A stretch of 64,000 nucleotides of DNA from Candidatus Latescibacterota bacterium (GTDB taxonomy: Bacteria > Latescibacterota > UBA2968 > UBA8231): positions 3,136,001 through 3,200,000 of the forward strand of contig OZ242214.1 of the NCBI GenBank assembly GCA_965206595.1. Direction: 5' to 3'. The stretch's first letter is position 1. Every line of letters starts with the position of its first letter. A program made the translations under genes and the position numbers. Shown here piece by piece: positions 10,201 to 63,164 of this stretch. Under the pieces are notes generated by a model. It did not search any database and was not told the DNA's origin. It saw only the letters and a list, made by a program, of their open reading frames with translations.

Positions 10201-11108
10201 GTAGGGAGTCGCTGGAGAAGGTCCTTGCCGGCGCGGGGACTGCCCTGAGCAACCTGCCAGCACGCGGACACGAGATCACGCTCACTAATGCCGAGGTCGA
10301 TTCACTCCTGGCAGCGGTTGATCGCTGGGCAGCGATGGGACCCTCGACGATTCTTCCATGGAACCGCCCCCATATGTTGCAGGAGTGGCGCAGCACCTTG
10401 AGGAACGTCGCGGCGTTATTACTGGAGTTGGAAGCGAGCCCCACGACGGCACAGACATTGCTCGACACCGTGCGGAAGCTGGGCACTGAAAAAACGCCAG
10501 CATACGAGTTGGTGCCTGGAATCGTGAAGTCCGGCCAAGAGCTGGCCGGTTCCGCCGCGGCGTTGCTACGGATCGGGCTCGGAGGCTCGACACCTGAACA
10601 ACGCGAACAAGCAGCGAGCGCGTGCATAGGTCTGTATCGGTGGCTTCGGGCTTCTGTCTGGGAAGATTCCCGTCTACCACGGCCACCTGACCACTTGGTA
10701 TTTGAGATGGGCGAAATCATCGCGGCCCCCAGGTGGCTTGTTCTCTCCCAAGCTCTTGAGATTGCGGCATGGGTGTTCGAGGAGGGATCCACGGAGCACC
10801 GCGAGCTTCTACGGCCATCAGTCCTTTCAGGTCTCGAGTCTCTCCGGCGCGCGCTTGTCTTTCGGGAGATTTCTTCGCATCCCTTCGTCGAACAACCCCA
10901 GGTCAGCGAAGATGACGTGGACGTGCCTTGGCTCCGCTGGCGTTGCGTCCAATTGGCAAAGGCCATGGACACCGCCGGATTCGGAGACGAGGCGGCTGTA
11001 ACTGGGTGGCTGAAGGACGCCGAGACAGATCCATTGCCGGAGCTGCGCTTCGCGGTGGAAGACTGGCACGACCGTCGGGTTTCGAAAAACGCGCCTGCCT
11101 CAGAGTAA
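7296..11108 (+). pseudogene. DSR1-like defence-associated sirtuin (SIR2-like NADase + long helical C-terminus), interrupted by in-frame TAG at 7542-7544
   Basis: ORFs 7287-7544 and 7599-11108 share a frame. Motifs MIGSGFS before the stop; TTNWD, KLHGS and GFSGEDPNF after it. Confidence 0.8.
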
Positions 11109-11129
11109 GGGAACAGATCGGCCGATTTC

Positions 11130-11276
11130 ACCGCTCACTTTTCCCAGGAGGAAGGATGCTGCCATTGGTCGGCCATTCCCATCATATGGCCGATGGTGTG
11201 CAGTACCGTGAGACGCGGCCTCCTCGGGAAGGGATTGTTTGCCATTGAAAGTGGACGGAAGCCGTGAACCGGTCAT
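11130..11276 (-). pseudogene. Degraded partner gene of the 11273-11698 ORF
   Basis: ATG overlaps the upstream stop (ATGA). Protein-like pieces VSRYCTPSAI and DGNGRPMAASFLL lie in different frames. Confidence 0.4.
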
Positions 11277-48282: not shown

Positions 48283-48425
48283 TCAGGCCAACTGGACAGG
48301 GCCAGGATAACGCCCGACGGCTTCGTCAACCGTCAACAGCCGTAATCCCTTCGATCTGCGCCTTTGTAATTCGGCCGGTAAACAGGCTCACCGGCTTCCC
48401 ACACAGTGCCCTTGACGTCAACAGG
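48283..48425 (-). pseudogene. Internally deleted vapC (PIN) remnant
   Basis: Minus strand gives WEAGEP/LPAE then AQIEGIT/LLTVDEAVGRYPGPVQLA*, matching the intact PIN at 57707 (WAAGEPDRLPAE...AQIEGMTLLTVDEVVGRYPGPIQLF*). Confidence 0.8.
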
Positions 48426-48428
48426 ACC

Positions 48429-49256
48429 TTAATCCCGCCCCGTTTCTGACAAGGTAGCAAGTGTTTCAAGGGACTGAAAACAAATAGATCTTCGCAATTT
48501 GTGAAGGGATTTTTCCTTTATTTGGCGAATGCGTTCTCTGGTAAGGCCCATCTTTTCCCCAATTTCCTGAAGTGTGTGAGGCTCCCCCCCTTCAAGTCCA
48601 AAGTAAAGTTTGATAATTTGGTAATCTCGATTGTTTAATTTATGAAAACTAAAATCTATCTGTCTCCGCGCAGATTCTCGTAAGGAGGAAGTGTCCGGCG
48701 CGGGATTAGTAATATCACTATAAAGATTGCCATTTAGGGAGTCAGCATTTCCCAAATTTTCTTCGAAATAACACATATCCCTAGAATTAATTAGTTCTCT
48801 AATTTCTGTTTCTGAAAATTTTAAATCCTTGGAAATCTCGGTAAGGTCTGATTCTTCGAAATCGTCAAAATCCATTGTAGGAAGGGCTTTCCGAACCTTC
48901 CGAAGGATTGCAACCTTATTTAGAGGCATCCGGACCGTATGTACATCCTCCTCAAGAGCTTTTAAAATCGATTGTCGGATCCACCATACGGCGTAGGTGA
49001 TAAATTTATTCCCCATATCTCCGTCAAACCGATCTGCAGCCGTTATCAAGCCCAAATTACCCGCACTAATCAGGTCCGACAAAGGTAGCCCGCAATTCTG
49101 GAATGGGATAGCAACATAAATCACGAACCGCAAATTCCCGTTAATTAGTTCATCCCGCGCCTGGAGATCCCCGCATTTAATTCGGGATGACAATTCCACC
49201 TCGCGTTCACGGGATAAAGGGGTTGAGCCCATAATGTCCTTAAAAAGGACCCGCAA
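48429..49256 (-). CDS. RpoD/RpoS-like sigma-70 factor (regions 1.2-4); possibly the C-terminal half of a fusion with the upstream ORF
   Basis: NLRFVI, DLISAGNLGLITAADRFD, KFITYAVWWIRQSI, TLQEIG..GLTRERIRQI. AT-rich. Confidence 0.9.
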   Translation of the reverse strand: MRVLFKDIMGSTPLSREREVELSSRIKCGDLQARDELINGNLRFVIYVAIPFQNCGLPLSDLISAGNLGLITAADRFDGDMGNKFITYAVWWIRQSILKALEEDVHTVRMPLNKVAILRKVRKALPTMDFDDFEESDLTEISKDLKFSETEIRELINSRDMCYFEENLGNADSLNGNLYSDITNPAPDTSSLRESARRQIDFSFHKLNNRDYQIIKLYFGLEGGEPHTLQEIGEKMGLTRERIRQIKEKSLHKLRRSICFQSLETLATLSETGRD

Positions 49257-50020
49257 AACGTTTTCTTCCCCATCCGGAATTTTTTTTCAAAAATAGCTTT
49301 TTCAAACCAAGAATAAATCCTGTTATAGAATTTCCGATTACGTTCGCTGGAAGTTAGCTTGCTAAGCCATGAATTTAATATTCCATCGCAGTTAATTGGT
49401 TTATGATTAGCAACCATCCAGTTTGCACACTGTGATAGCGATATTTCCATCAAACTGTCTAGATCAATTGGGCTTGGATTCGGGAGTGAAATATCCCTGA
49501 TCAACGATGTGACGCGCTCAAAAACATCGCGAGAATTATCGAGTTTATTGGGCCGGCGCCCTACAACCGCCACACTCAAGCGTGTTCCAGCTCGAAAAAA
49601 TACAACAGTTGGAGGAGTTAGTCGCTTATCAATCTCGCGGGTAAATTCATCAAGTATCCCTCTCGGTGCATCAGGTCCCTTCAGTTCCACTGCGAGAAAA
49701 AGAAAGCTCCGATGTCGTCCGCCTTGATAATAGCCTGCCGACCTCCCCGACCCTTGGAGACAACTCGAGATTATTTGGTCATTAGTCATTTGGAAAACGA
49801 GCTTTACAGACTGGACATCTTCCCGGAAAGCACCTTCTGGTTCCGTATTGGGTCTAATTGCAGGAAATTTTTGGATGAAATCCTCTACACTGCCAGAGAG
49901 CTTAAAAGTTCGATCACTCTCGTATCCCAAAATCAAAAGAAGATCTTTAACAACTAAAGAAAGATCTCTGCCTTTTGAGGATGCTAAAGTAGATTGGATA
50001 TCTTCACGAATGCCGGACAT
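49145..50020 (-). CDS. Paralog of the N-terminal ~250 aa of the adjacent Eco57I-like methyltransferase
   Basis: Colinear with the 50198-53845 N-terminus (STLAS..GRD, LGY.S, SFLF.A.ELKG, EFTREI.KRL, N.RFY....WF). Similarity stops at about 49280. Confidence 0.85.
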   Translation of the reverse strand: MSGIREDIQSTLASSKGRDLSLVVKDLLLILGYESDRTFKLSGSVEDFIQKFPAIRPNTEPEGAFREDVQSVKLVFQMTNDQIISSCLQGSGRSAGYYQGGRHRSFLFLAVELKGPDAPRGILDEFTREIDKRLTPPTVVFFRAGTRLSVAVVGRRPNKLDNSRDVFERVTSLIRDISLPNPSPIDLDSLMEISLSQCANWMVANHKPINCDGILNSWLSKLTSSERNRKFYNRIYSWFEKAIFEKKFRMGKKTFCGSFLRTLWAQPLYPVNARWNCHPELNAGISRRGMN

Positions 50021-50094
50021 CCTGTAAAGAAAGATCTCTGCCTTTTGAGGATGCTAAAGTAGATTGGATATCTTCACGAATGCCGGACATCCTG
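49955..50094. repeat. Perfect 70-bp tandem duplication spanning the gene start
   Basis: TAAAGAAAGATCTC...CCGGACATCCTG at 49955-50024 and 50025-50094. Confidence 0.95.
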
Positions 50095-50197: not shown

Positions 50198-53100
50198 TCA
50201 TTTCTCAATTGCCTGGATCTCCTTTCTCGTCAGTCCGTAAAGGTTGTACACTAATTGGTCTATTTCGCCTTCCTCCTCCTGGGTGTTTGCCGCCGGGTCG
50301 CGAGCTTTTTTCTTCAGGATTAGATCCACCAATCGAGAAAAGGGCCGTTGCTTTTCCGCCGGGATTATCGGAATTGGGATATTTTCAACGGAGGCATTTA
50401 TCCATCGAGTCACACCCATCCCAGAATTCAGTGCCATGTTGTCCATAAACCATGTAATTAGTGTTGAATTGAGTAAAGCACAAAGATATTTGATCGATTT
50501 TCCCGTCATAATAAATGTCGTGTTCAAGCAAAACACCCCATCAATATCGTAGGCAAATCTACCCTTATCTGTGAGATCCATCCAGATCAATTTTTTCTTT
50601 TGGAAATCTTCGTAGTAATTAGCACCCCATCGCTGGAGAGCATACCATTCGTACCGGATTCCAGTTTCCGATCTATTTCGGGAACTTAGGGCTGCCTTGT
50701 GTGAAAATAAATGCTGATAAATCGCAGGATACTGTTTTTTGAACAGATCCTCCGCCTTTTTACTGCTACCCTTGATTGTTGAATCAGAATGCAAAGGGAA
50801 ATGCCAAGGGACATTGATTAGCCATAATCCAGCCCAATTCGCTCGATATCGCTGAATGTCCCGCCCACGCAGCACCGGCTTGATGATCTCTGCAGAGTTT
50901 GGGGATTGTGCAACCAGCGCCGATCTAGTCGCTTCGTCAATGATGAAGGCACCATTGCAACCCGTTGTGATTCCACGATTGCGTTCACCTTCCCAATTTT
51001 TTATCGGCGTTCCTTTCTTCTGCATCTTGCCCATTACCATCTGCTCGGTTCGTGACAGTATGCTCCAAGGCTTATCTCCCTCCGGCCTCGCTTGCCCCCA
51101 CAACTTTTCCTCAGGCGGGAAATTTTTGGTTTTCAATTTGTCCATATCAACAGCATCAACCGCCTTGGACCTCCTGGCATCGTTCCCTTTCCGCAGTAGC
51201 AGGACACAGGTGTCGACGATGGTGTTTTCAAAAACGTCCTTCCCCATTTCCAGTAGCCGCAACGGGCTGTGCCGATCTGCGAAATAACGGCGCAGGGGTT
51301 TTCCGTACTCAGCTTTCAACCAGCTGTTTGAGGTGATGTAGGCCAGCAGCCCCCCAGGGCGAAGCTGCCGGCAGCCGCTCTCGTAGAACAGCTGGTAGAT
51401 ATCTCCGGTTCGGGCGAAGGTATCGTAACCTGCGTCCTTGTAGAGCTTGCCTAATTTGCCTCCTTCCTTCTGCAACTGGATGTAAGGTGGATTGCCGATA
51501 ATCAGGTCAAACCCTTCCTCGACCCCGAACATGTACTTCGCGTCGAACCAGGTGCTGCTGTCGTTCTGGTCGTAAGGATCCCAATGGGCTATCTGGTCCG
51601 CAGCCCCGGGTGGGAGGCCGGATTTCTCCAATTGCTTGGAGAGCCGACTCCGCAATTTCTTGTCAACCTTGATGCACTTCAGCTTTTCCTGTCGAGTATT
51701 GGCGTGAAAATGTCGTTCCCGGTTTGTCTGGATGTCCCTCTCCACCCGGTTAACGGCATCTGTCTGGCCGAGGGTGAACTGGTCCGGCTTGTCCAGGCCC
51801 AGGAGTGTGTCGGCGGCGACGAAGCGGGTCTCGAGGTTGGGCAGCGGCTTGATGCCGTGGTTCTCCGCGGTTTCGTCCGTGCTCTGCTCGATAGCCAGGG
51901 TTATAAAGAAGCGCAACTTGGCGATCTGGCAGGCGATGGTCTGGATGTCCACGCCGTAGATGCTGTTCTGGATGAGATAGAGCTTACGCCCGAAATCGGA
52001 GTCACGGTACTTTTCGAACGTGTCACTGATTTCCTTGAGCTCGGCATCGCGTTTCTGCTGGTTCTGTACCTCGAAGGCTTCCTGGGCGCTCATTCCCGCA
52101 ATTTCCTTCTGGAAGTTTTCCCAGAGCGCGTTTTCCGGATCGAGGCGTCGCAATGCCAGGGTCAGCTTGTGCAGGACTGCCATTGGGAAGGCCCCGGAAC
52201 CGACTGCCGGATCGAGCACCTTTGTCTCCGCAATCGCCCGCACAATGTTTGCCGCTTCCTTCTCTTCAAACAGATCGTTTGCATCGTTGAAGGCGTCTTC
52301 GTAGTCCAGCAGGTAGCGCAGCCGTTCTTGCCAGTAATCCGCGTCGCCAACATTAGGCTGCACTTTTTCCTCAAACGCCGCGACCAAAGCCTCATCCACC
52401 ATGTAGTCCACCACGGCCCTGGGCGTGTAGTAGGAGCCGGTCTGCTTGCGGGCCGTCTCACGGGTCTCGGGGTTGTAGGCCGCCAGCAGATTCTCGAAGA
52501 CTTTGCCGAGCAGCTCGGGGTCGAGGGCGACCTCCTGCTCTATGGGGGTGTTTTCCTCCACCGTGAACTTGAAGCGGTTTAGCAGTGGAAACAGACCGCC
52601 GCCCTCGTCGAAGAACAGGGCGTCAGGGACGTCCAGCTCCTGCCACGCCTCACGGCGCGCTTGTGCCGCCCGGGGGCTGTCGCTTGGGTCCGGATCGCTG
52701 AACATGTCGATGCGTTTGCCCCCGGCGCTTCTTGACTCGTCATCGTCCAGGCAGTCGAACAGGCCGCCATTGATGAACGGCGTCTGTTTCATCAGGTCCT
52801 CGAAACGCTTCGTATCCCGAATGAGGGTTCGGTAGCGGAAACGTGAAAAGACCCGGTGGCTAGGCTCGGTCCGGGTGGTGAAACCACGCTTTCCCATCTC
52901 GGTGTTGAGGGTCGCGAAGAAGAGGTTCTGCAGGACGGCGCGGTAGTAGTCCGAGCCGCCGAAGTCGTTCAGCAGCTCTTTCATTTCGGCGCCGACGAAC
53001 CACTCCTCTCGGACCAGCCCCTTTTCCTTGATGAACCAGACGAACAGGATTCGAGTGATCAACCGGATGACCTGCTGCTCCATAGGCACGGTCGAGGGGA

Positions 53101-53845
53101 ACTGCGCCTCTTCCACCGCCCAGTTGAACCAATCGAATAGCTCGCGGTAGAACCGCCGGTTGAGTTCCTCTGTGTCCAGTGCATCCAGCCAGGCGGCAAG
53201 CATGCTGTCGAAGTTGGGTTGCTTGCGTTGCAAACCCATCCATTGCAGCCGCTTTTCCAGCGAAAGGTCCTCCAGAATATCGAGGTGTGCCCGGTGCGGG
53301 TTGGCGGTGTCGATTTCGCGTATCAGGAAAACGCGGCCTTGCACATCGCGGCTACGATCGCGCTTGTGCTCGCGGCGGTGGACGAATGCCACGGTGAGCA
53401 GGCCGGAGCCGGCCCGGAAAAGGACGACCGCAGGTGCAATTAACCGTTTGTTTATCTCACGGGTGAATTCGGCGTACTGGCCGCGCGGGTAGCGAACCCC
53501 TTTCAGTTCGATCGCTACAAAGAGAAAGCTGCGGATGTTTCCGCTGTTGAATTCGCCGGTGTCAAACAGGGAATGTTGCACCCCCGAAGCGATTTCGGCG
53601 TCAGTGATCTGAAAGAGGATGCAAGCGGATGCGACGTTGTCGCGGAACGCCTGCTCCGACACCGTGCCTGGCTTCGGGGCGGGGTACTCCTTGATGAACT
53701 CTTTGATGTGGTTCCCCAGCCGTGGGGGCTTGAGCTCGCTCCGGTAGCCTAGGGCGGCGAGCAAATCCTGCGCCGCTGTGAGGAAATCCCTCCCCGGCAT
53801 GGAGGCCAGGGTGGAGCTGATTTTGTCGCGGTCTTGTTCAGCCAT
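50198..53845 (-). CDS. Eco57I-like N6-adenine DNA methyltransferase with TaqI-like C-terminal TRD
   Basis: NGGLF, TGSYYTP, VLDPAVGSGAF, GNPPY, LRGRDI.RY, KLIW..L, LLNS; 1215 aa. Confidence 0.92.
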   Translation of the reverse strand: MAEQDRDKISSTLASMPGRDFLTAAQDLLAALGYRSELKPPRLGNHIKEFIKEYPAPKPGTVSEQAFRDNVASACILFQITDAEIASGVQHSLFDTGEFNSGNIRSFLFVAIELKGVRYPRGQYAEFTREINKRLIAPAVVLFRAGSGLLTVAFVHRREHKRDRSRDVQGRVFLIREIDTANPHRAHLDILEDLSLEKRLQWMGLQRKQPNFDSMLAAWLDALDTEELNRRFYRELFDWFNWAVEEAQFPSTVPMEQQVIRLITRILFVWFIKEKGLVREEWFVGAEMKELLNDFGGSDYYRAVLQNLFFATLNTEMGKRGFTTRTEPSHRVFSRFRYRTLIRDTKRFEDLMKQTPFINGGLFDCLDDDESRSAGGKRIDMFSDPDPSDSPRAAQARREAWQELDVPDALFFDEGGGLFPLLNRFKFTVEENTPIEQEVALDPELLGKVFENLLAAYNPETRETARKQTGSYYTPRAVVDYMVDEALVAAFEEKVQPNVGDADYWQERLRYLLDYEDAFNDANDLFEEKEAANIVRAIAETKVLDPAVGSGAFPMAVLHKLTLALRRLDPENALWENFQKEIAGMSAQEAFEVQNQQKRDAELKEISDTFEKYRDSDFGRKLYLIQNSIYGVDIQTIACQIAKLRFFITLAIEQSTDETAENHGIKPLPNLETRFVAADTLLGLDKPDQFTLGQTDAVNRVERDIQTNRERHFHANTRQEKLKCIKVDKKLRSRLSKQLEKSGLPPGAADQIAHWDPYDQNDSSTWFDAKYMFGVEEGFDLIIGNPPYIQLQKEGGKLGKLYKDAGYDTFARTGDIYQLFYESGCRQLRPGGLLAYITSNSWLKAEYGKPLRRYFADRHSPLRLLEMGKDVFENTIVDTCVLLLRKGNDARRSKAVDAVDMDKLKTKNFPPEEKLWGQARPEGDKPWSILSRTEQMVMGKMQKKGTPIKNWEGERNRGITTGCNGAFIIDEATRSALVAQSPNSAEIIKPVLRGRDIQRYRANWAGLWLINVPWHFPLHSDSTIKGSSKKAEDLFKKQYPAIYQHLFSHKAALSSRNRSETGIRYEWYALQRWGANYYEDFQKKKLIWMDLTDKGRFAYDIDGVFCLNTTFIMTGKSIKYLCALLNSTLITWFMDNMALNSGMGVTRWINASVENIPIPIIPAEKQRPFSRLVDLILKKKARDPAANTQEEEGEIDQLVYNLYGLTRKEIQAIEK

Positions 53846-53849
53846 GGGG

Positions 53850-54149
53850 TCAGGGCGTGAGGGTCAGTGTCGAAGCCGGGCGGATGCCATCGGTGAGCCT
53901 ATTCCGCTCGCCAGCCAGTCTGCGAAAGTCACACTCCACCTGGATACCGTGCCAGAACTCGTCCGATTGGCCGAAGAAGGCGCCGAAACGAATGGACATG
54001 GCGGGTGTGATCGACCGCTTCGCGTGAACGATTTCGTTGATCGCACGCGGGGGCACGCCGATGGCACGGGCCATAGCGTTCTGCGAGATCCCCATGGGCT
54101 CCAGGTACTCCTTCAGAAGAATCTCGCCGGGCGTAATCGGACTTTCCAT
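53850..54149 (-). CDS. higA: HigA-family antitoxin
   Basis: [27 protein letters not shown]...KRSIT...FW..Q. Confidence 0.9.
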
Positions 54150-54187: not shown

Positions 54188-54466
54188 CTAATGATAGTCC
54201 ACGATCGCCACTTGGTCAGGTCCCTCATCGGTCCACCGAAAGACGATGCGCCACTGGGCGTTGATCCGAATGGAGTGAAAGCCCGCCAAGTTGCCCCGAA
54301 GTACTTCCAGACGGTTGCCCGGCGGAACGGCGAGGTCGCTGAGCCTACTCGCCTGATTAATCTGAATGAGTTTTCTCAACGCCACTCGCGCTATTGCCGC
54401 CAAGCGGCGGTTGCTCCCAGTCTGGAACAGCTGCTCTGTGTCCCGATTTGCGAAGGATTGGATCAA
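54188..54466 (-). CDS. higB: HigB (RelE/ParE family) toxin
   Basis: IQSFA..TE.LF, PPGNRLE.L.G...G.HSIRIN.QWRI.F.W...IVDYH. Confidence 0.9.
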
Positions 54467-54478
54467 TCTGAGTGAGCG

Positions 54479-57400
54479 TTACGCGCTATCGCTGATCACG
54501 AGCCAAGTCACCAACTCGAAGCCCTCCAGGTCGTTCGGAGCTTCCGACGCCGCCGGCAGCACGAAGTCACGGCTGCCACCGAGACCAAGGCCCTTGGCCT
54601 GCGTTTTGCCGTGCGCCTCGGCAATTTGAGCGACCACGGCCTTCATCAGCTCGTCGTACCGCGCCATGTTCCTGCCGTTGTCAGTTTCCGTGTTGAAGGC
54701 ATCGCATAGCGCCAGGAGGGGCTCCGGCTTGCCCACCGACGTGGACTCGAAAACACCGAGGGCCTGGCGTGTGTTGGTGCACCCGAACCGGGTCTGCCCG
54801 TCGTCCTGGATGAACCCCATATAAAAGGGATGGACCGGACTGGCCATCCGCTGCCCAGACTTCACCTTCCCCTTACGCTGCCTGAGGAAGAAGATCACCC
54901 CGGGGACAGCGGGGGAAGCTGCGGGTTCGGTAATGGCATAGGCGCCATTGGGGACTCGTTCCAGCTCCTCCCGGTTCTGTTCGAGGTACTGCAGGAGTTG
55001 CGCGAAGAAGTAGTCCAGCGTGAAGTCGCTCATCGCCGGGCTGTCGTCCAGATCGTCGAGATCGAGGATTTCGTCACGGAGCCTGAGGAGCTGCTTGTCG
55101 CGGAAGTTCAGCTCCAACTGGGCCCCCTCTTCGGTGAGCGGGTCGTCTTCGCCACTGGCCGCCATGTCAGCGAGCATCATCCGCGCCCTCACCCGGTTCT
55201 CCAACCGCAGATAGGCGTCCATGTCCTTGGTGGGCCAGAAGTTCAGCATCCGCACCCTTTTATTGCGGCTGCCGATGCGATCAATGCGCCCGAAGCGCTG
55301 GATCAGCCTCACCGGGTTCCAGTGGATGTCGTAGTTCAGAGTGGTGTCGCAGTCCTGCAGGTTCTGCCCCTCGGAGATGCAGTCCGTCGCGATCAGCAGG
55401 TCAATCTCTTCGCCAAGAGTTGCCTGGCCCGGTCCCCGAGCCCTTGGGGCGAAGTTGGTCAGAATGGCGTTGAAGTTGTTGTCGCCGAGTGTGGTATGAG
55501 TGGCATCGCCGGCGACCATGGCCATCTTCAGGCCGAGTTCTGTGGCCAAAGGGGTCAGATGCTCATACAGGTACTCGGCGGTGTCCTTGAACGTGGTGAA
55601 CACCAGCACTTTGCGGTTGGTCCTGCCATCCTTGTCTGTTGTCGGGTTTTCGGCCTTATGCCGAATCACCCGCCTTATTTCGAGCAGTTTTCCGTCACGC
55701 TCCGGCGTTATGGCGGCGACACTCTTTCTCGCAACATCCAGCGTTGCCCGATCACGCAAAAGGTGCTGCCGCCAACGAGGAAGATCGAGTTCGCTCAGGT
55801 GGTACGGATCTCGCGCCCGGTTGATGAAGAACTCCTCGTCCTCCACATCCTCGTCAGGCAGAATGTCCGCTTGGTCGCTGGCCAATTGTTTTTTTTCGTA
55901 GCGATCGATCCGGGAGATCAGGTCGTCGATTTTCCCGACTGTGCGTTCAAGCGTCAGGGTCAGCGAGTGGGGTGAGCTCTCCAGCCGTTTCAGGAAGTTG
56001 GTGCGGATCATCCCGATGAGGAAGTTCTCGCGATCCTGTTGGTTGAAGTTCAACAGTTTACGCTCTTTGGCCAGTTCCTCAATCCGTGTCTCGTCCGTGA
56101 GGTAGTCGGTAGGTCGATACACGGACATCTCGAATCGGCTGATCTGGTCCGCCAGTTCCTTGTACGACAGCTCGCCCTTCCGGTCCGTGGGCGGATAGCG
56201 GTTGTCGGGCCTGTCATGGGTTGGAAACTGCCCGATCCGCTCCATCTCCTGGGAATAGAACCGCTCGATCTGACGGCGGGAGCGGGCAATGGAAACGGCG
56301 TCGAGGAGGCGGAGGAAATCCGCCCCCAGACTTTCCAGCAGCTCCGCCTTGTCGCGCTTGCCATTCCTCGTCCCAACCTCCCAACTCTTGAACTCCTTTT
56401 GCGCTGCGTTCAGCAGGGTGGAGATGTCCCCGATTCCGAGACTGTCCCAGAACACGTCCCTGCGCCCCGCGGTCATCAGGTAAATCTGGTTGCGCAGGTC
56501 GATAAGCGACGTGTTGACCGGCGTAGCCGACAGCATCAGCACCTTCGTGCGTGCGCCCTGACTGATGATTTCTTCGATCAGCCGCTTGTACCGCTGTCCG
56601 CCATCGTTTCGGAAGTTGTGCGACTCGTCGATTACGACGAGGTCGAAGTTGCCCCAGTTGAAGCGGGAAAGATCGACGTTTCCCGCCATGCCGTGGTCGC
56701 GGGAGAGGTCGGTGTGCGAAAGCAGGGTGTACCCGAATCGGTCGGCCATGAATGGGTTGCCAATTTGGGCGTTTTGCGACGGGTAGAGCGACCAGTTGTC
56801 TCGCAGTTTTCGGGGACAAAGCACCAGGACATTCTCGTTACGGAGCTCGAAATACTTGATAACGGCCAGGGCGGTGTAGGTCTTCCCTAGCCCTACGCTG
56901 TCGGCCAGGATGCACCCGTTGTTTCGCCGTAGGCGAAAAATGATGCTTTTCGCCCCGTCCTTCTGAAAATCAAACAGCGTTTTCCAGATTGCGGTGTCAT
57001 ACAGATGGATGTCGTCCAGACGCTGGTTTTCGTCGAGACGCGCGTCGATTTCTTCGCGGAACAGCTCCAACAGCGTCTTGAAGTAGATGAACTCCGGCCC
57101 GTACTCCTTTCCGATACGGTTGAGCGCGGTCAGCACCTCCTGCTTCACGTCGACGGTGAGTTCTGTGTCATTCCACAGTCCATCGAACCAGTCCCGTAGC
57201 TCTGCACAGCTCCCGCTGTCTGTAGTAGCCAGGTTGATTTCCAGATTGGGACTGATGCCGCCTCCGAGACCTCTTCTGGTGAAGTTGGAGCTTCCCACCA
57301 CCGCGGCTCCGGTATCTGAACCTTCGGTGAGGTACATCTTGCCATGCAGGAAGTTGGACCTGCTGATCGAGCGAACCGTCACGCGGTCGCGGTTGATCCA

Positions 57401-57706: not shown

Positions 57707-58093
57707 TCAGAACAGTTGAATCGGACCCGGGTAGCGCCCGACGACTTCATCCACTGTCAACAGCGTCATCCCCTCGATCTGCGCCTGGGCGACCAACAGC
57801 CGGTCGAACGGGTCCTTGTGGATCGGCGGCAGTGTATCCACCGCTACCGAATGGGCGCCGGTTACCACGAGTTCCGTGTAGCCGTGCTCCAGCAATCCCC
57901 GGCGCAGCACGCGCGGGTCGACCCTGAAGTCTTCCCGTCCCAAGCCTTTCTTGATAGCAACCTCCCAGAGCGATGCGGCGCTGTAAACCAACTCCGACTC
58001 CGGATCTTCGATCAAACTGCGCGCCTCCGCAGGCAACCGGTCCGGCTCACCCGCAGCCCAGAGCAGGACATGCGTGTCGAGAAGGAGATTCAC
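57707..58093 (-). CDS. vapC: VapC PIN-domain toxin
   Basis: LLLDTHVLLW, SAASLWE..IK, HKDPFDRLLVAQA. Confidence 0.92.
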   Translation of the reverse strand: MNLLLDTHVLLWAAGEPDRLPAEARSLIEDPESELVYSAASLWEVAIKKGLGREDFRVDPRVLRRGLLEHGYTELVVTGAHSVAVDTLPPIHKDPFDRLLVAQAQIEGMTLLTVDEVVGRYPGPIQLF

Positions 58094-58515: not shown

Positions 58516-58848
58516 ATGCCATCGCAATTGGGAAAGACAATCCGTTCGAGGCGCCAAGAGATCAACCTCTCTCTTCGCGGACTTGCTCGCGCCATCGGGA
58601 AATCCCCCTCCTTCATCGTGGAAATCGAACGGAGCGAGCGCCCACCTGCGGTATCAGAGGATACCCTTCGCGAAATCGCGAACGCCATACAAGTAGAAGC
58701 AGATCTCCTGATTGTGCTGGCGGGGAAGACACCCACCGACGTCACCCCGAAGAGCGTGGAAGAGGTGGAGCTCTACCGTATGGTTCGTGGCCTCCAGGCA
58801 GATGAGCAAGAACAGGTCAAGAGGTATATCCGTAGTCGGAGAAAATGA
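58516..58848 (+). CDS. XRE-family HTH regulator
   Basis: LGKTIR..R....LSLR.LA..IG.SPSFI..IE. Confidence 0.88.
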   Translation: MPSQLGKTIRSRRQEINLSLRGLARAIGKSPSFIVEIERSERPPAVSEDTLREIANAIQVEADLLIVLAGKTPTDVTPKSVEEVELYRMVRGLQADEQEQVKRYIRSRRK

Positions 58849-58849
58849 A

Positions 58850-59908
58850 ATGAATGATGTCAACCTCAACCCTGCTGAAGAATTGACCGGTTTGACCCTC
58901 GATGGAGGTTGGCGAGTAATCGAGAAGTGCAGAAAGTCTGGGACTCAAACTGGTGGTTTCTTCAGTGTAGGGTATATAGTTGCGCGAGATGGACAGAAGG
59001 CCTACCTAAAGGCACTCGACTTCTATTCAAGTCTCGTGCTGGCCAGTGACCCTGCGCGTAGCCTGCAGCCCCTGATCGAAGCATTCAACCGGGAGCGAGA
59101 TCTCCTTGCCAAGTGCAGAAACCACAGGCTAACCCGAGTTATTGTGGCTCTGGATGATGGAGCAATCAGACCAAGTGGTACGAGCTTCCTTTATCCAGTG
59201 CAATACATCGTCTTTGAGCTCGCGGACGGTGACGTCCGAAACCAGATCACAACAGCTGACCGTCTGGACCTCGCTTGGGCGCTACGCGCATTGCACCAGA
59301 TTGCGGTCGGCTTGCAGCAACTACACGGCATCGGTGTTGCTCACCAGGACACAAAACCTTCAAATGTCTTGCTTTTCCAGGGAGGTGTGGTATCCAAGTT
59401 GGCGGATGTAGGAAGCGCCTCTGCCCGAGGAGAGACCCGGCCGTTTGGGGACCGAGACTATCTGGGTGATCCTACGTACGCTCCCCCTGAGTTGCGGTAC
59501 GGGGCACCGCCTGCAGATTGGGGACCTAGAAGCATGGGGTGTGATGTATACCACCTCGGAAGTATGATCGTCTGGATGTTCACCATGACTGCGATGACTC
59601 AGATCCTTCTCATGAGTTTGTCCCAGGACATGCACCCAGAAGCTTGGGAAAGTACCTACGATGAGGTGCTTCCTTATCTGAGGTCGGAGTATGAGGACAT
59701 TCTCGAATACTTGTACCCCGAGTTTCCCGAAGGTTTCCAGGACGATCTCACCGATATGGTGCGCCAGTTATGTGATCCTGACCCAGCTCGGAGAGGCCAT
59801 CCTCGAAGTCATCAGGAGATAGGGTCGCCTTACCGCTTGGAGAGGTATATTTCTAAGCTAGACCGACTAGCCAAGACAGCTGAATTCCGTCTCGTTGGTG
59901 AGATATAG
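58850..59908 (+). CDS. Hanks-type Ser/Thr protein kinase
   Basis: GGFFS.GY, YLKAL, HQDTKPSNV, LADVG, YAPPE, DVYHLG. Confidence 0.88.
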   Translation: MNDVNLNPAEELTGLTLDGGWRVIEKCRKSGTQTGGFFSVGYIVARDGQKAYLKALDFYSSLVLASDPARSLQPLIEAFNRERDLLAKCRNHRLTRVIVALDDGAIRPSGTSFLYPVQYIVFELADGDVRNQITTADRLDLAWALRALHQIAVGLQQLHGIGVAHQDTKPSNVLLFQGGVVSKLADVGSASARGETRPFGDRDYLGDPTYAPPELRYGAPPADWGPRSMGCDVYHLGSMIVWMFTMTAMTQILLMSLSQDMHPEAWESTYDEVLPYLRSEYEDILEYLYPEFPEGFQDDLTDMVRQLCDPDPARRGHPRSHQEIGSPYRLERYISKLDRLAKTAEFRLVGEI

Positions 59909-59909
59909 T

Positions 59910-61475
59910 ATGCCTCTCGGGTTGAGCGACAATAACCGCAGAGTAATTCCCACATGGAGGCCGAGCACTGTTTCAATGAAATTCGGGGAATCAGCACCTG
60001 TTTCCGGTTTGGAGGCAAGAGGCTTTCCAAGCGATGAATCATTAAGGGAAGCCAAACAGGACTGGATCGACAGTCCCACAGTCCCTTTCGCAGCTGGTCT
60101 GGTCATGGCGGCGCTATGCGCGGGGAAGGAAAATGAGGCATCGGATGCCGCAAAGTTACTTCTGGAGACAAAAGAGAGAGTTTCACCTCTGCTCCTCAGA
60201 TGTGCTCATCGGATTCTCGGCTCTGGTGAACCGGAAGCGCAGAGTTCAGAGGAGATCCCCAGTGCGCTCAGAGACTATCGTAGACGTCTGCGAGTTGGCC
60301 CAAACAATCCGTTCATATGGCTGGATCTTGCTCTAGAGTACAGCACCATTGGTAAGTTAAAGAGTGCGGAGAGGGCGATCGTTGTAGCTACCTCTTTGGC
60401 CGGCAGCAACCGTATCGTACTTCGCTCGGCCAGCAGATTTTTTCTCCACTGCGGGCGTAATGACCGGGCTCATTCTCTTCTGGTTACGGCGAAGGAACTC
60501 CAGAACGATCCTTGGCTACTATCCGCAGAAATTGCCGTTGGGGAACTAATGGGACAAACTTCCAGATATATTCGAATAGGGAGAGAAATGCTTGCTTCAG
60601 GGAAGCACTCCCCAAGGCAGCTTTCCGAACTGGCAAGCGCAATCGGGACATTGGAGCTTTCAGCTGGGAAAATCCGGCACTCCAAGCGACTCCTGACGGG
60701 ATCCCTCAAGGATCCTACCGATAACTCAGTTGCCCAGGCAATTTGGGCCCAAAGTGTTACCCCAGAATTAGGGCTGGGTCCGTCTTACTCTTCGGTACCT
60801 TACTCGTTCGAGGCTAGAGCATGGGACAACGCCATTGAAGGCAAATGGGAGGTAGCAATGACAGCCGCCCGAGATTGGCAAAATTACGAGCCAACCTCTG
60901 GACGTGCAGCAGTGTTCGGCTCTTGGATGGCAGCTGCAATGATCCGAGACTACGACGACGCCATCAAGATAGCAAAGCAGGGCCTTCTCGCCGATCCCAA
61001 AAAAATCGTTCTCGCAAACAACCTTGCCTTCGCGCTCGCCTGCAGCGGCCAACTAGACGCAGCAAGGAGGGTCCTTCAGAAGTGGCCGATTGCGAACCTG
61101 GCCGAAGAGCACAAGCCAATTATCCTCGCCACGAACGGCTTGTTAGCCTTTCGAGAAGGAGACAGGAACTCCGGAAGGGAGCTCTATCGTAGAGCCCGGG
61201 AGCTTGCGATCAATCAAAAGGAAAGAGGCAAATCAGTTTGGGCCGGACTTTATCATGCTAGAGAGGAGTACAGGATAGGCAACCATTTCGACGCAGATGG
61301 TCTAGTGAGGCGTGCCATCGGCGGAATTCCAAAAATACCTAAGAAGGACATCCCTGTCACAATTCGAATACTCGGGGAGGTCCTTGCTGTTGGGGGACGC
61401 GATGTGTCTGAAGTAATGCCGAAAAAAAAGAATCGTGGCCAAAGATTCGACACAATCAGAGAGAAATTCCCCTAA
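59910..61475 (+). CDS. TPR-repeat protein
   Basis: Helical repeats (PNNPFIWLDLALEY, ADP..IVLANNLAFALA); starts 1 bp after the kinase stop. Confidence 0.8.
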   Translation: MPLGLSDNNRRVIPTWRPSTVSMKFGESAPVSGLEARGFPSDESLREAKQDWIDSPTVPFAAGLVMAALCAGKENEASDAAKLLLETKERVSPLLLRCAHRILGSGEPEAQSSEEIPSALRDYRRRLRVGPNNPFIWLDLALEYSTIGKLKSAERAIVVATSLAGSNRIVLRSASRFFLHCGRNDRAHSLLVTAKELQNDPWLLSAEIAVGELMGQTSRYIRIGREMLASGKHSPRQLSELASAIGTLELSAGKIRHSKRLLTGSLKDPTDNSVAQAIWAQSVTPELGLGPSYSSVPYSFEARAWDNAIEGKWEVAMTAARDWQNYEPTSGRAAVFGSWMAAAMIRDYDDAIKIAKQGLLADPKKIVLANNLAFALACSGQLDAARRVLQKWPIANLAEEHKPIILATNGLLAFREGDRNSGRELYRRARELAINQKERGKSVWAGLYHAREEYRIGNHFDADGLVRRAIGGIPKIPKKDIPVTIRILGEVLAVGGRDVSEVMPKKKNRGQRFDTIREKFP

Positions 61476-61892: not shown

Positions 61893-63164
61893 CTACTTGA
61901 ACAGCTTGGGCCGCTTGATTTCGAGGTTGGCGCGATTAAGGGCCGGATCGAGAGGGGACATTCCCTCCAGCCTCGCGCGCAGAGCCAATGCTTCTTCGGA
62001 TTCTCCCTTACCCTCCCTGATCAAGCACCGGTATTCATCCAAGGCTTCTGTGAAGGTATTCCCGGGCGGGCGTTCGCCTACGCGCATAACCACGGAAAGA
62101 ACGTCCCCCGCCTCGGCCCCATAGGTCGCCCCACGCGGTGCCCCGGCGACAATGCGGTCTCCATCCGGGTACAGTTCCACAATGCTCTTCGGCTCGTCCG
62201 TGGTCAGCACCTGAGGACTGTGAGTGGATACGATATACTGCGCATTCGGGAACGTCCGCCGCAGGTCGTCGAGGATGCGCTGCTGCCACCCCGGATGCAG
62301 GTGCAGTTCCACCTCGTCGATCAGGACCACGGCCTCTGATGCAAGCGGGTCCTTCAGGTGCGGGTTACCCTGCGCCATCCGTCGCGCCAAGTCGGCCGCC
62401 AGCGCCAGCACGATGCGATAGCCCCCGCTCAGCTGGTCGAGGGAGAGCTTCTCTACCTGTTCTTGCCCTGATTTCCGGGACACCACGAAACGGGGCGGAT
62501 TCAACTCGGTGCGCGGATCGGACACTTCCGGCAGCATGGACGAGATCGCCTGGCGAACTGCGTCCAACTCCTTTAGCTGAAAATTGAAGTCGCGCCGCTC
62601 CTTCTGTTGCCGCAGTTCCTCGTCTTCCTTGGAATAGAACCAGGTGAAGAGCCCCTCGAAATCCGTGCGAGCGGAAAGCGCCCCCTCCAGGGCGGCTAAC
62701 CGGGGTACCCTGTGCTGAGAATTGCTCGGGGACAGTACTGATTGCGGCACACCTGCGACTGTGCGATCGGTACCATAAAAGGCGAAAATGGGCAAATCAT
62801 TCTGATCCGCATGGCTGATATCGACTAGCGCCTCCTCCACGGCACCCTGAAGAGCCAACCTCTCTTTCTCTTCTCGATCCGCATCTTTTCTATTTCCCTT
62901 CCACTCCGAAACGGTTCCCTCCACTGGGGCAAGCAAGACCCGCGGATCTCCCTTACCCTCGCGCCGATCCTCCTCGCAAAAATCAACGCCCGGTTCACAA
63001 GGGAACGATCGGAACAGGTCCCGCAACCCCACCGCGATCGCACTCAAAACACTCGTCTTGCCGTACCCATTGTCGCCGTGAAGCACGGTCAGCGACGGGT
63101 CGAGCTGCAGCTCGAGTTTCTCAAGCGCCCGATAGTTTTCAACCTTCACGAATTTCAGCTTCAC
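61893..63164 (-). CDS. PtuA-like ABC ATPase (Septu / retron effector family)
   Basis: GDNGYGKT, QLSGGY...L.ADLARR....NP, VLIDEVELHLHP.WQQ, STHSPQV. Confidence 0.85.
   Translation of the reverse strand: MKLKFVKVENYRALEKLELQLDPSLTVLHGDNGYGKTSVLSAIAVGLRDLFRSFPCEPGVDFCEEDRREGKGDPRVLLAPVEGTVSEWKGNRKDADREEKERLALQGAVEEALVDISHADQNDLPIFAFYGTDRTVAGVPQSVLSPSNSQHRVPRLAALEGALSARTDFEGLFTWFYSKEDEELRQQKERRDFNFQLKELDAVRQAISSMLPEVSDPRTELNPPRFVVSRKSGQEQVEKLSLDQLSGGYRIVLALAADLARRMAQGNPHLKDPLASEAVVLIDEVELHLHPGWQQRILDDLRRTFPNAQYIVSTHSPQVLTTDEPKSIVELYPDGDRIVAGAPRGATYGAEAGDVLSVVMRVGERPPGNTFTEALDEYRCLIREGKGESEEALALRARLEGMSPLDPALNRANLEIKRPKLFK

Follow-up and report, generated by a model that had tools for sequence, protein, structure and literature searches.

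A sigma-70 factor fused to a restriction-enzyme domain in Latescibacterota, and a frameshifted copy of its gene

In a 64,000-nt stretch of DNA from Candidatus Latescibacterota bacterium (assembly GCA_965206595.1, contig OZ242214.1, positions 3,136,001-3,200,000 of the forward strand; hereafter the window), a paralogue of the N-terminal domain (NTD) of a Type IIG-like methyltransferase and a sigma-70 factor are encoded on the minus strand in two open reading frames (ORFs) that meet at a run of eight A residues (A8). This arrangement raises the question of whether the two ORFs are separate genes, one gene expressed through a programmed change of frame, or one gene that has been broken. Our answer, to which we assign a probability of roughly 0.6, is that they represent one gene broken by a one-base frameshift, that is, a mutational and possibly reversible (phase-variation-like) OFF allele of a horizontally acquired, divergent copy, and not a case of programmed recoding; for the intact protein we infer the mechanism given further below. 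The fusion constitutes a real, little-known gene family, and the frameshift in the window is most likely an ordinary homopolymer mutation.

One gene in two frames and its in-frame relatives

Residues 5-248 of the upstream frame (ORF1) aligned with residues 6-249 of the neighbouring methyltransferase; over 246 aa the identity is 46% (E 1e-59), well above what chance would give, and the alignment ends at ...FEKKF. The minus-strand text at this point is TTT GAA AAA AAA TTC, in which A8 occupies positions 49287-49280; sigma is read in the -1 frame, where the last stop codon upstream, TGA 49289-49287, overlaps the start of the run. In the 43 residues of ORF1 past the A run, no similarity to the methyltransferase or to anything else was found. 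A first-pass annotation of this DNA had described the colinearity of the ORF 50020-49145 with the start of the methyltransferase, the end of the similarity at the A8 run (49280-49287), the -1 position of the sigma frame with its stop at the run, and a GGGGA upstream of TTG 49256, and all these statements hold. Reading across the junction in the -1 frame gives EKK-IPDGEENVLRVLFKDI, with ..FEKKIPDGEENVLR.. as the junction peptide, and a product of 531 aa, the zero-frame product having 291 aa. As written, the DNA encodes the NTD followed by a 43-residue nonsense tail, and the sigma factor can only be obtained through re-initiation at TTG 49256 or through rare -1 slippage. Pfam matched the sigma frame of the window to Sigma70_r2 (PF04542, E 2e-13) and Sigma70_r4 (PF04545, E 2e-17); for regions 1.2 and 3 of this copy there was no Pfam match at E <= 0.01, and its alignment to the family runs through both.

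A protein search with the sigma half as query, covering proteins of at least 500 aa, returned at the top of its list a block of 500-570 aa relatives with 45-55% identity. The NTD and the sigma factor occur together in one frame in about 45 protein clusters, with lengths of 526-570 aa. The earlier proposal that the two ORFs are the halves of one fusion gene is supported by the existence of these in-frame homologues with both domains. The 45 relatives align end to end, with 70% mean column identity and invariant residues in both halves, and Pfam detected sigma regions 1.2, 2 and 4 in all 45 of them and region 3 in 41. In the seven relatives examined, a ~250-aa ORF1-like N-terminus is followed by the linker ..WFEQAVxExKFPEGEE.. 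and then by sigma region 1.2. The intact protein of ~530-570 aa is composed of a ~250-aa NTD, a short linker (KFPEGEE) and a complete sigma-70 factor with regions 1.2, 2, 3 and 4. A scan of genome contigs by sigma motifs yielded mostly ordinary sigma factors; among the 80 loci kept, only L004, which is the same locus as L122, holds a full-length fusion.

The NTD of the window shares 54% identity (E 4e-97) with the NTD of the in-frame fusion P0004, and the sigma part 55% identity with the sigma half of the same protein. The window copy keeps 82 of the 88 family-invariant positions (31 of 33 in the NTD and 51 of 55 in the sigma half), as well as 92 of the 124 residues conserved at >=90% in the family. 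The retention of so many invariant residues makes the break look recent, and on these alignments the window copy reads as a divergent lineage with a single break and not as a decayed gene. In the AlphaFold2 (AF2) model of P0004, the site of the break is located in the short non-helical linker that connects the last NTD helix with the helix of region 1.2.

Full-length copies of the fusion were found in 16 of the 168 genomes of the phylum, in three families. Comparison of these 16 loci over 10-20 kb each revealed the gene order helicase, fusion, methyltransferase. A helicase gene of the phospholipase D (PLD)-SNF2 type, 63-65% identical to that of the window, or fragments of it, lies upstream of the fusion in 16 of 16 loci, and an NTD-bearing methyltransferase gene (54-69% identical) lies downstream in all 15 loci whose contig continues. 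The search for in-frame homologues beside PLD-SNF2 and Eco57I genes, which the first-pass annotation had put forward as a check, was thus successful on both counts, with ~45 clusters and adjacency in all 16 phylum genomes. In 10 of the 14 loci with an intact helicase gene, the helicase stop codon either overlaps the start of the fusion gene or is only a few bases away from it, which commonly indicates translational coupling. The ratio of nonsynonymous to synonymous substitution rates (dN/dS), computed for 11 pairs of in-frame genes, was 0.17-0.36 for the NTD and 0.19-0.36 for the sigma half; these pairs exclude the window copy, whose nearest relatives are 54-58% identical, with saturated synonymous sites. 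The ratios indicate that both halves of the fusion are under purifying selection in the family, and neutral evolution of the upstream domain, named earlier as an outcome that would speak against the fusion, is not what the NTD values reveal.

Broken copies were also observed elsewhere in the family. In G141 (L114), a TAA stands in place of a Gln codon at position 355, and in G058 (L122) there is a frameshift near codon 413; the protein P0124 is a 385-aa internal-deletion form without sigma regions 2-3. The helicase gene of G141 is also split, by about 1.3 kb.

The frame change at the A8 run and its possible causes

A shift of frame at this site is needed in none of the 16 homologous loci. Most of them read GAG GAG AAA TTC CCA (EEKFP), with E(E/K)KFPEGEE as the linker consensus, and the A run is missing from all loci except L118 and L120. 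The former reads GAA AAA AAA GTC CCA, with A8 in frame; the latter reads GAA AAA AAA ATC CCA, with A9 in frame, and encodes EKKIPEGE, to be compared with EKKIPDGEE in the -1 reading of the window. Given this likeness, the simplest history is that one A was lost from an A9 tract, and, since none of the 16 loci is shifted and L120 carries A9 in frame, the window allele is most simply explained as an A9-to-A8 contraction. Loss of a T or C just after the run would also account for the frame, with EKKFP as the reading. The genome as a whole contains 51 A8 and 41 T8 runs, together with runs of G or C up to C31 and G33, and the helicase gene of the window has an A8 run of its own (55889-55896, minus strand), in frame.

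Slippage at the A8 run had been proposed. As a programmed mechanism, -1 ribosomal frameshifting or transcriptional slippage would set the ratio of free NTD (291 aa) to NTD-sigma (531 aa), as in dnaX. The heptamer A AAA AAA is indeed in the right register, in zero frame across the codons GAA AAA AAA, the -1 product equals the in-frame relative residue for residue around the junction, and both halves are well conserved at the invariant positions. On the other hand, no homologous locus uses a shift here and the run is mostly missing from them. In addition, the 131 nt around and after the run gave no sign of a stimulatory RNA structure, their minimum free energy being -30.5 kcal/mol against a shuffle mean of -32.5 kcal/mol (z +0.54), with 138 of 200 shuffles folding at least as well as the native sequence. 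The comparison is made at a distance, as a scan of metagenome contigs for a near-identical A9 allele gave one locus with 57% identity and no closer relative of the window allele. On these grounds the proposal of programmed slippage is not upheld, and we regard recoding as very unlikely. A functional split would instead combine a free NTD, competing with the methyltransferase for its partner, with a stand-alone sigma factor started at TTG 49256 behind GGGGAAG. The sister solo sigma described below has ~13 residues before its TLRLYF motif, so very little of region 1.2 would be lost with a start at this TTG; a stretch rich in purines is present 9 nt upstream, and the sigma frame is open over 285 codons. 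That start, however, would fall 110 nt inside the nonsense tail of ORF1, no other locus is split at this point, and promoter-like sites in the region number 3, against 3.5 expected from shuffles, which leaves a working split unlikely.

The frame change could also be a sequencing or assembly error, in which case the organism would have A9 and an unbroken fusion gene. The assembly consists of a single 7.05-Mb contig, and homopolymers are a classic weak point of such single-contig assemblies. The check over the T8 run recommended in the first-pass annotation was carried out on assembled sequence: each of the runs X1, X2 and X3 yielded its own, separately built 1757-nt contig that spans 48300-49984 without a difference or a gap, and all three read A8. 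These are three runs of one sample, with the library type not on record, and contigs drop minority variants; the contigs show A8 alone, and minority alleles of the tract are invisible in them. Run X4, from another study, provided two identical pieces (48776-48939 and 49656-49849), with the A run outside both. Throughout the assembly, a frameshift signature was associated with 17 of 301 homopolymers of at least 8 bases (5.6%) and with 191 of 5000 random positions (3.8%), and this near-random rate argues that the assembly is not riddled with homopolymer errors. The A8 run is probably real, and we consider an error at this position quite unlikely.

Several observations weigh against the reading of the window copy as a mutationally broken, acquired allele of a working fusion. 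Runs X1-X3 share one sample, perhaps the genome's own source, and an A9 subpopulation or a systematic homopolymer error is possible. A AAA AAA in zero frame is a textbook slippery heptamer, from which some full-length product is possible. The fusion gene of the window sits after the methyltransferase gene (helicase, HigBA, methyltransferase, fusion) and in the other 16 loci before it, its GC content at third codon positions is 0.36-0.41 against 0.74-0.77 in the rest of the operon, and it lies on long branches (0.78 and 0.91) in the trees; this copy may never have worked with this helicase. As for the family, of the 30 genomes in which a helicase gene, complete or partial, matches at >=64% identity, 13 lack the fusion. 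In eight fusion-less loci the helicase and methyltransferase genes lie 0.4-5.4 kb apart, and the fusion-less locus L173 (G137) retains an 85-aa remnant of the fusion NTD. In this phylum the fusion is a frequent but non-universal companion of a two-gene restriction system (PLD-SNF2 helicase and NTD-bearing methyltransferase), not one of its core subunits. AF2 modelling of full-length P0004 gave no defined interdomain arrangement, with a predicted local distance difference test (pLDDT) score of 68.6 and a predicted template modelling (pTM) score of 0.46. Finally, in the conserved spacer that follows the fusion gene in other loci, a consensus scan of the gene's strand found no promoter of canonical spacing, TTGATG and TATAAT being 20 nt apart.

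Origin of the fusion and predicted partner of its NTD

In a phylogenetic tree with Shimodaira-Hasegawa-like approximate likelihood ratio test (SH-aLRT) support, the fusion NTDs form one clade (95 to 99) nested among the methyltransferase NTDs of the phylum. The fusion sigma domains, in a tree from a quick search with SH-aLRT support only, also form one clade (99), with the window copy inside, and this clade is sister to a solo 286-aa sigma factor of one genus, with an N-terminus (..DEENTLRLYF..) that aligns to the fusion linker. Between the fusion and methyltransferase genes, a spacer of ~150 nt is highly conserved in eight loci of two families (L115, at 11096-11251, L124, L126, L114, L117, L118, L120 and L125) and absent from the loci of genus g24. 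The first ~40 nt of this spacer duplicate a stretch of the helicase gene about 175 nt before its stop, and the spacer contains, in this order, TTGATG, 20 nt, TATAAT, GGAG and ATG. The NTD clade, the sister position of the solo sigma and the helicase copy in the spacer point to an order of events in which a tandem duplication of the helicase 3' end and the methyltransferase NTD would have been followed by capture of a resident sigma gene. An nhmmer profile of the spacer found no copy in the window and a single weak match genome-wide (E 0.38). The spacer was rejected as a candidate structured RNA, since the RNAalifold covariation term was +0.39, with compensatory changes in 1 of 40 pairs, and Rfam gave 0 matches in L115 and L117.

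Base composition sets the window copy apart from its surroundings. The GC content is 0.43 in both halves of the fusion and 0.44 in the last ~700 nt of the methyltransferase gene, compared with 0.58-0.59 in the rest of the methyltransferase and in the helicase and 0.67 in the flank. The break inside the methyltransferase gene is sharp (50198-50900 vs 50901-53845), coincides with the start of TaqI_C and continues into the fusion gene. The sigma half shares 49% identity with the genome's own paralogues, and the NTD of the window methyltransferase falls outside the clade of the fusion-accompanying methyltransferases. HigBA occupies the slot between helicase and methyltransferase where other genomes have the fusion. 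The fusion gene was probably carried in by a swap of the specificity domain, in which recombination with a low-GC relative would have brought it along. The window copy is a broken, foreign and divergent allele, and it matters less than the intact loci.

The NTD family comprises 665 representative clusters at E <= 0.001. Nearly all of the 150 clusters listed have the match at the N-terminus or close to it; slightly more than half are methyltransferase-sized (~900-1380 aa), and most of the shorter ones look like fragments. The AF2 model of the NTD (pLDDT 87) is an alpha/beta domain, which VIA-align matched to residues 2-142 of DrdV (Z 5.2, root-mean-square deviation 3.9 A, 123 residues aligned), to BpuSI (Z 3.9) and to Hjc (Z 3.9), all Z values being below the level that the tool calls clear. 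These weak matches are to the N-terminal nuclease domains of Type IIL/IIG enzymes (DrdV, BpuSI) and to further nucleases of the PD-(D/E)xK kind. Foldseek with the NTD model found no match in the PDB at E <= 0.001, a profile of 57 NTDs gave 0 matches at E <= 1 among PDB sequences, and the NTD had no match in NCBIfam and PADLOC. DUF4391 (PF14335) did not match ORF1 of the window at E <= 0.01; in the N-terminal part of the relatives, 23 of 45 had sub-threshold matches to it (best E 1.8e-5, cut-off 29.9 bits). Putative motif residues of the window NTD are D81, Q82 (E in the family), E112 and K114; all 15 fusion NTDs compared have E112 and 11 of them have K114, a lysine shared by only 15 of 31 wider representatives. 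From their pattern, which most fusions retain, the D-E...E-x-K residues could be catalytic; alternatively, the NTD may have a nuclease fold that lacks activity and serves in assembly.

Three features suggest that the two NTDs share a partner: the fusion gene is coupled to the helicase gene, the NTDs are paralogues of each other, and the same residues are conserved in both. Co-folding of the fusion NTD of L115 with helicase residues 545-1085 gave an interface score (ipSAE) of 0.42 (0.50, 0.37 and 0.42 in separate runs), the best control reaching 0.02; the runs share >=39% of contacts, and the partner has a pLDDT of >=68. For reference, 58 of 80 solved complexes and 2 of 110 mismatched pairs reached the mark applied, and among those passing with a score of <=0.60 were only 7 of the 80 solved complexes, along with both passing mismatches. 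The co-fold with the helicase that had been suggested at the outset thus lends weak support to the predicted NTD contact.

According to the mechanism that we propose, the NTD of the fusion would dock on the C-terminal half of the helicase, at the site that the methyltransferase's own NTD would use, and the availability of the sigma factor to RNA polymerase would thereby be tied to the state of the restriction complex. Our best guess for the intact protein is that the restriction complex controls how available its sigma factor is. The first-pass annotation had suggested that such a fusion could tie RNA polymerase to the helicase/methyltransferase complex or serve as a decoy for phage anti-sigma proteins. 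A bolder version, which we find doubtful, would make NTD-sigma a third working part of the restriction machine. Its endonuclease-like NTD would compete with the methyltransferase NTD for the C-terminal part of the PLD-SNF2 motor, the motor would act as an anti-sigma factor, and the state of the complex would be passed on to promoter choice; the A8/A9 tract would make the link switchable in this genome, either as a heritable on/off state or through low-level slippage giving free NTD and NTD-sigma.

Island context and comparison with known systems

The genes of the island all lie on the minus strand, in the order vapC, PLD-SNF2 helicase, HigBA, methyltransferase, ORF1 and sigma frame (Table 1). 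The whole 9.4-kb segment from helicase through HigBA and methyltransferase to the fusion is bracketed by 80-nt imperfect direct repeats (74-91% identity, spacing 9424 nt), and no integrase was found inside it. The helicase ATG is placed 3 nt past the vapC stop. Beyond vapC there are a gene with a protein-kinase domain (58712-59908), a gene for a tetratricopeptide repeat (TPR) protein (59895-61475) and an AAA_15/AAA_21 ATPase gene (61893-63164, minus strand), which may represent further defence-island content. The unit of the tandem duplication at the start of the fusion gene is not a multiple of three, and its upstream copy is out of frame and meets a stop. A contig across the copy-to-copy junction was found in X1-X3, and contig depths are consistent with two copies in both X2 and X3, whereas X1 may have three.

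Table 1. Coordinates of the features of the island within the window
Feature	Position	Strand	Basis or remark
PIN/VapC gene, intact	57707-58093	-	Pfam
PLD (HKD) nuclease-SNF2 helicase, 1074 aa	54479-57703	-	Pfam PLDc_2, SNF2-rel_dom, Helicase_C; PADLOC 'HKD+Snf2' E 4e-108
HigB-like toxin	54188-54466	-	Pfam
HTH_3 antitoxin	53850-54149	-	Pfam
Type IIG-like methyltransferase, 1215 aa: NTD + Eco57I/N6_Mtase + TaqI_C specificity domain	50198-53845	-	Pfam; PADLOC REase_MTase_IIG E 3e-123
70-nt perfect tandem duplication	49955-50094	-	Spans ribosome-binding region, ATG and first 22 codons of fusion gene
ORF1, 291 aa	49145-50020	-	Open reading frame
Fusion NTD (248 aa), paralogue of methyltransferase N-terminus, predicted restriction-endonuclease-like alpha/beta fold	49277-50020	-	Identity and AF2
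A8 run (T8 on plus strand), interdomain linker, site of one-base frame change	49280-49287	-	Sequence
ORF1 out-of-frame tail, 43 codons + stop, overlapping sigma frame	49145-49276	-	Sequence
Sigma-70 part, 285 codons open from TGA 49289-49287	48429-49286	-	Pfam; possible internal starts TTG 49256, ATG 49232
Island border repeat 1, vapC 3' end, 80-nt direct repeat	57707-57786	-	Repeat comparison
Island border repeat 2, degenerate vapC 3' end	48283-48363	-	Repeat families D2 and D10

In other genomes, the surroundings of the methyltransferase gene vary. An inverted spare specificity cassette, 45-57% identical to methyltransferase residues 956-1215, lies right after the methyltransferase gene in L122, L117, L119, L120 and L173, a layout that, by analogy, is that of programmed-inversion specificity switching. 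The slot between fusion and methyltransferase carries two ORFs each in L116 and L122 (412-420 aa and 331-339 aa), a 388-aa ORF in L119, and a 121-aa ORF with a helicase fragment in L125. Judged by eye, the inserts resemble a ParA-type ATPase accompanied by a DNA-binding partner, a transposase, and an antitoxin of the HigA type.

The first-pass annotation had stated that no system of this kind was described. As regards the fusion itself this stands, since the literature searched, of which the supplementary domain-architecture tables of PMC12839542 were not part, yielded no description of a sigma factor joined to a domain of a restriction enzyme. The statement does not extend to the general design, because MzaA, of the five-gene anti-phage system MZA (NF041931, PDLC02203), is already named as a sigma-70 factor with a large non-sigma N-terminal extension in a defence operon. 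MzaA is the best NCBIfam match of the window sigma half (E 4e-56) and its only PADLOC match, at 191 bits against a cut-off of 800 and over profile positions 475-712 only, which correspond to the C-terminal sigma part. The N-terminus of MzaA is unrelated to the NTD, and in place of the MZA genes the fusion is accompanied by genes for a PLD-SNF2 helicase and a Type IIG-like methyltransferase.

With regard to the A8 run, the heptamer A AAA AAA in register recalls -1 frameshifting in dnaX, and a homopolymer in a defence gene recalls the phase variation of restriction-modification systems; the window has no shift site conserved among homologues and no stimulatory structure, and contigs, in which minority alleles are invisible, show no length polymorphism. 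Controller (C) proteins are dedicated transcription factors encoded with restriction-modification systems, and sigma factors are normally under separate anti-sigma proteins, just as restriction systems are normally under controller proteins or phase variation. Passages of PMC9881135 report for Cj0031-like enzymes an adjacent phospholipase D and SNF helicase gene and programmed inversions. The methyltransferase and helicase of the window are of the same kind as these Type IIG/IIL enzymes with a PLD-SNF2 neighbour (Cj0031-like, Eco57I). The systems studied here add a sigma partner, which does not appear in those passages. In another defence setting, the extracytoplasmic function (ECF) sigma factor DdvS and its anti-sigma factor DdvA are reported to regulate a CBASS-CRISPR island (PMC11506125). 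Like the C proteins and the DdvS/DdvA pair, the fusion is a putative dedicated transcription factor encoded with a defence system; in contrast to these, which are a separate small protein or a sigma/anti-sigma pair, it holds its sigma factor and a copy of a restriction-enzyme domain in one covalent chain.

A sigma factor fused to a restriction enzyme's own domain, and selected inside the restriction operon, suggests a direct line from the DNA-restriction motor to transcription, and intact three-gene loci such as L115 constitute a small testable system. Alongside MzaA, this fusion family is a hint that sigma factors with foreign N-terminal domains recur in bacterial immunity.

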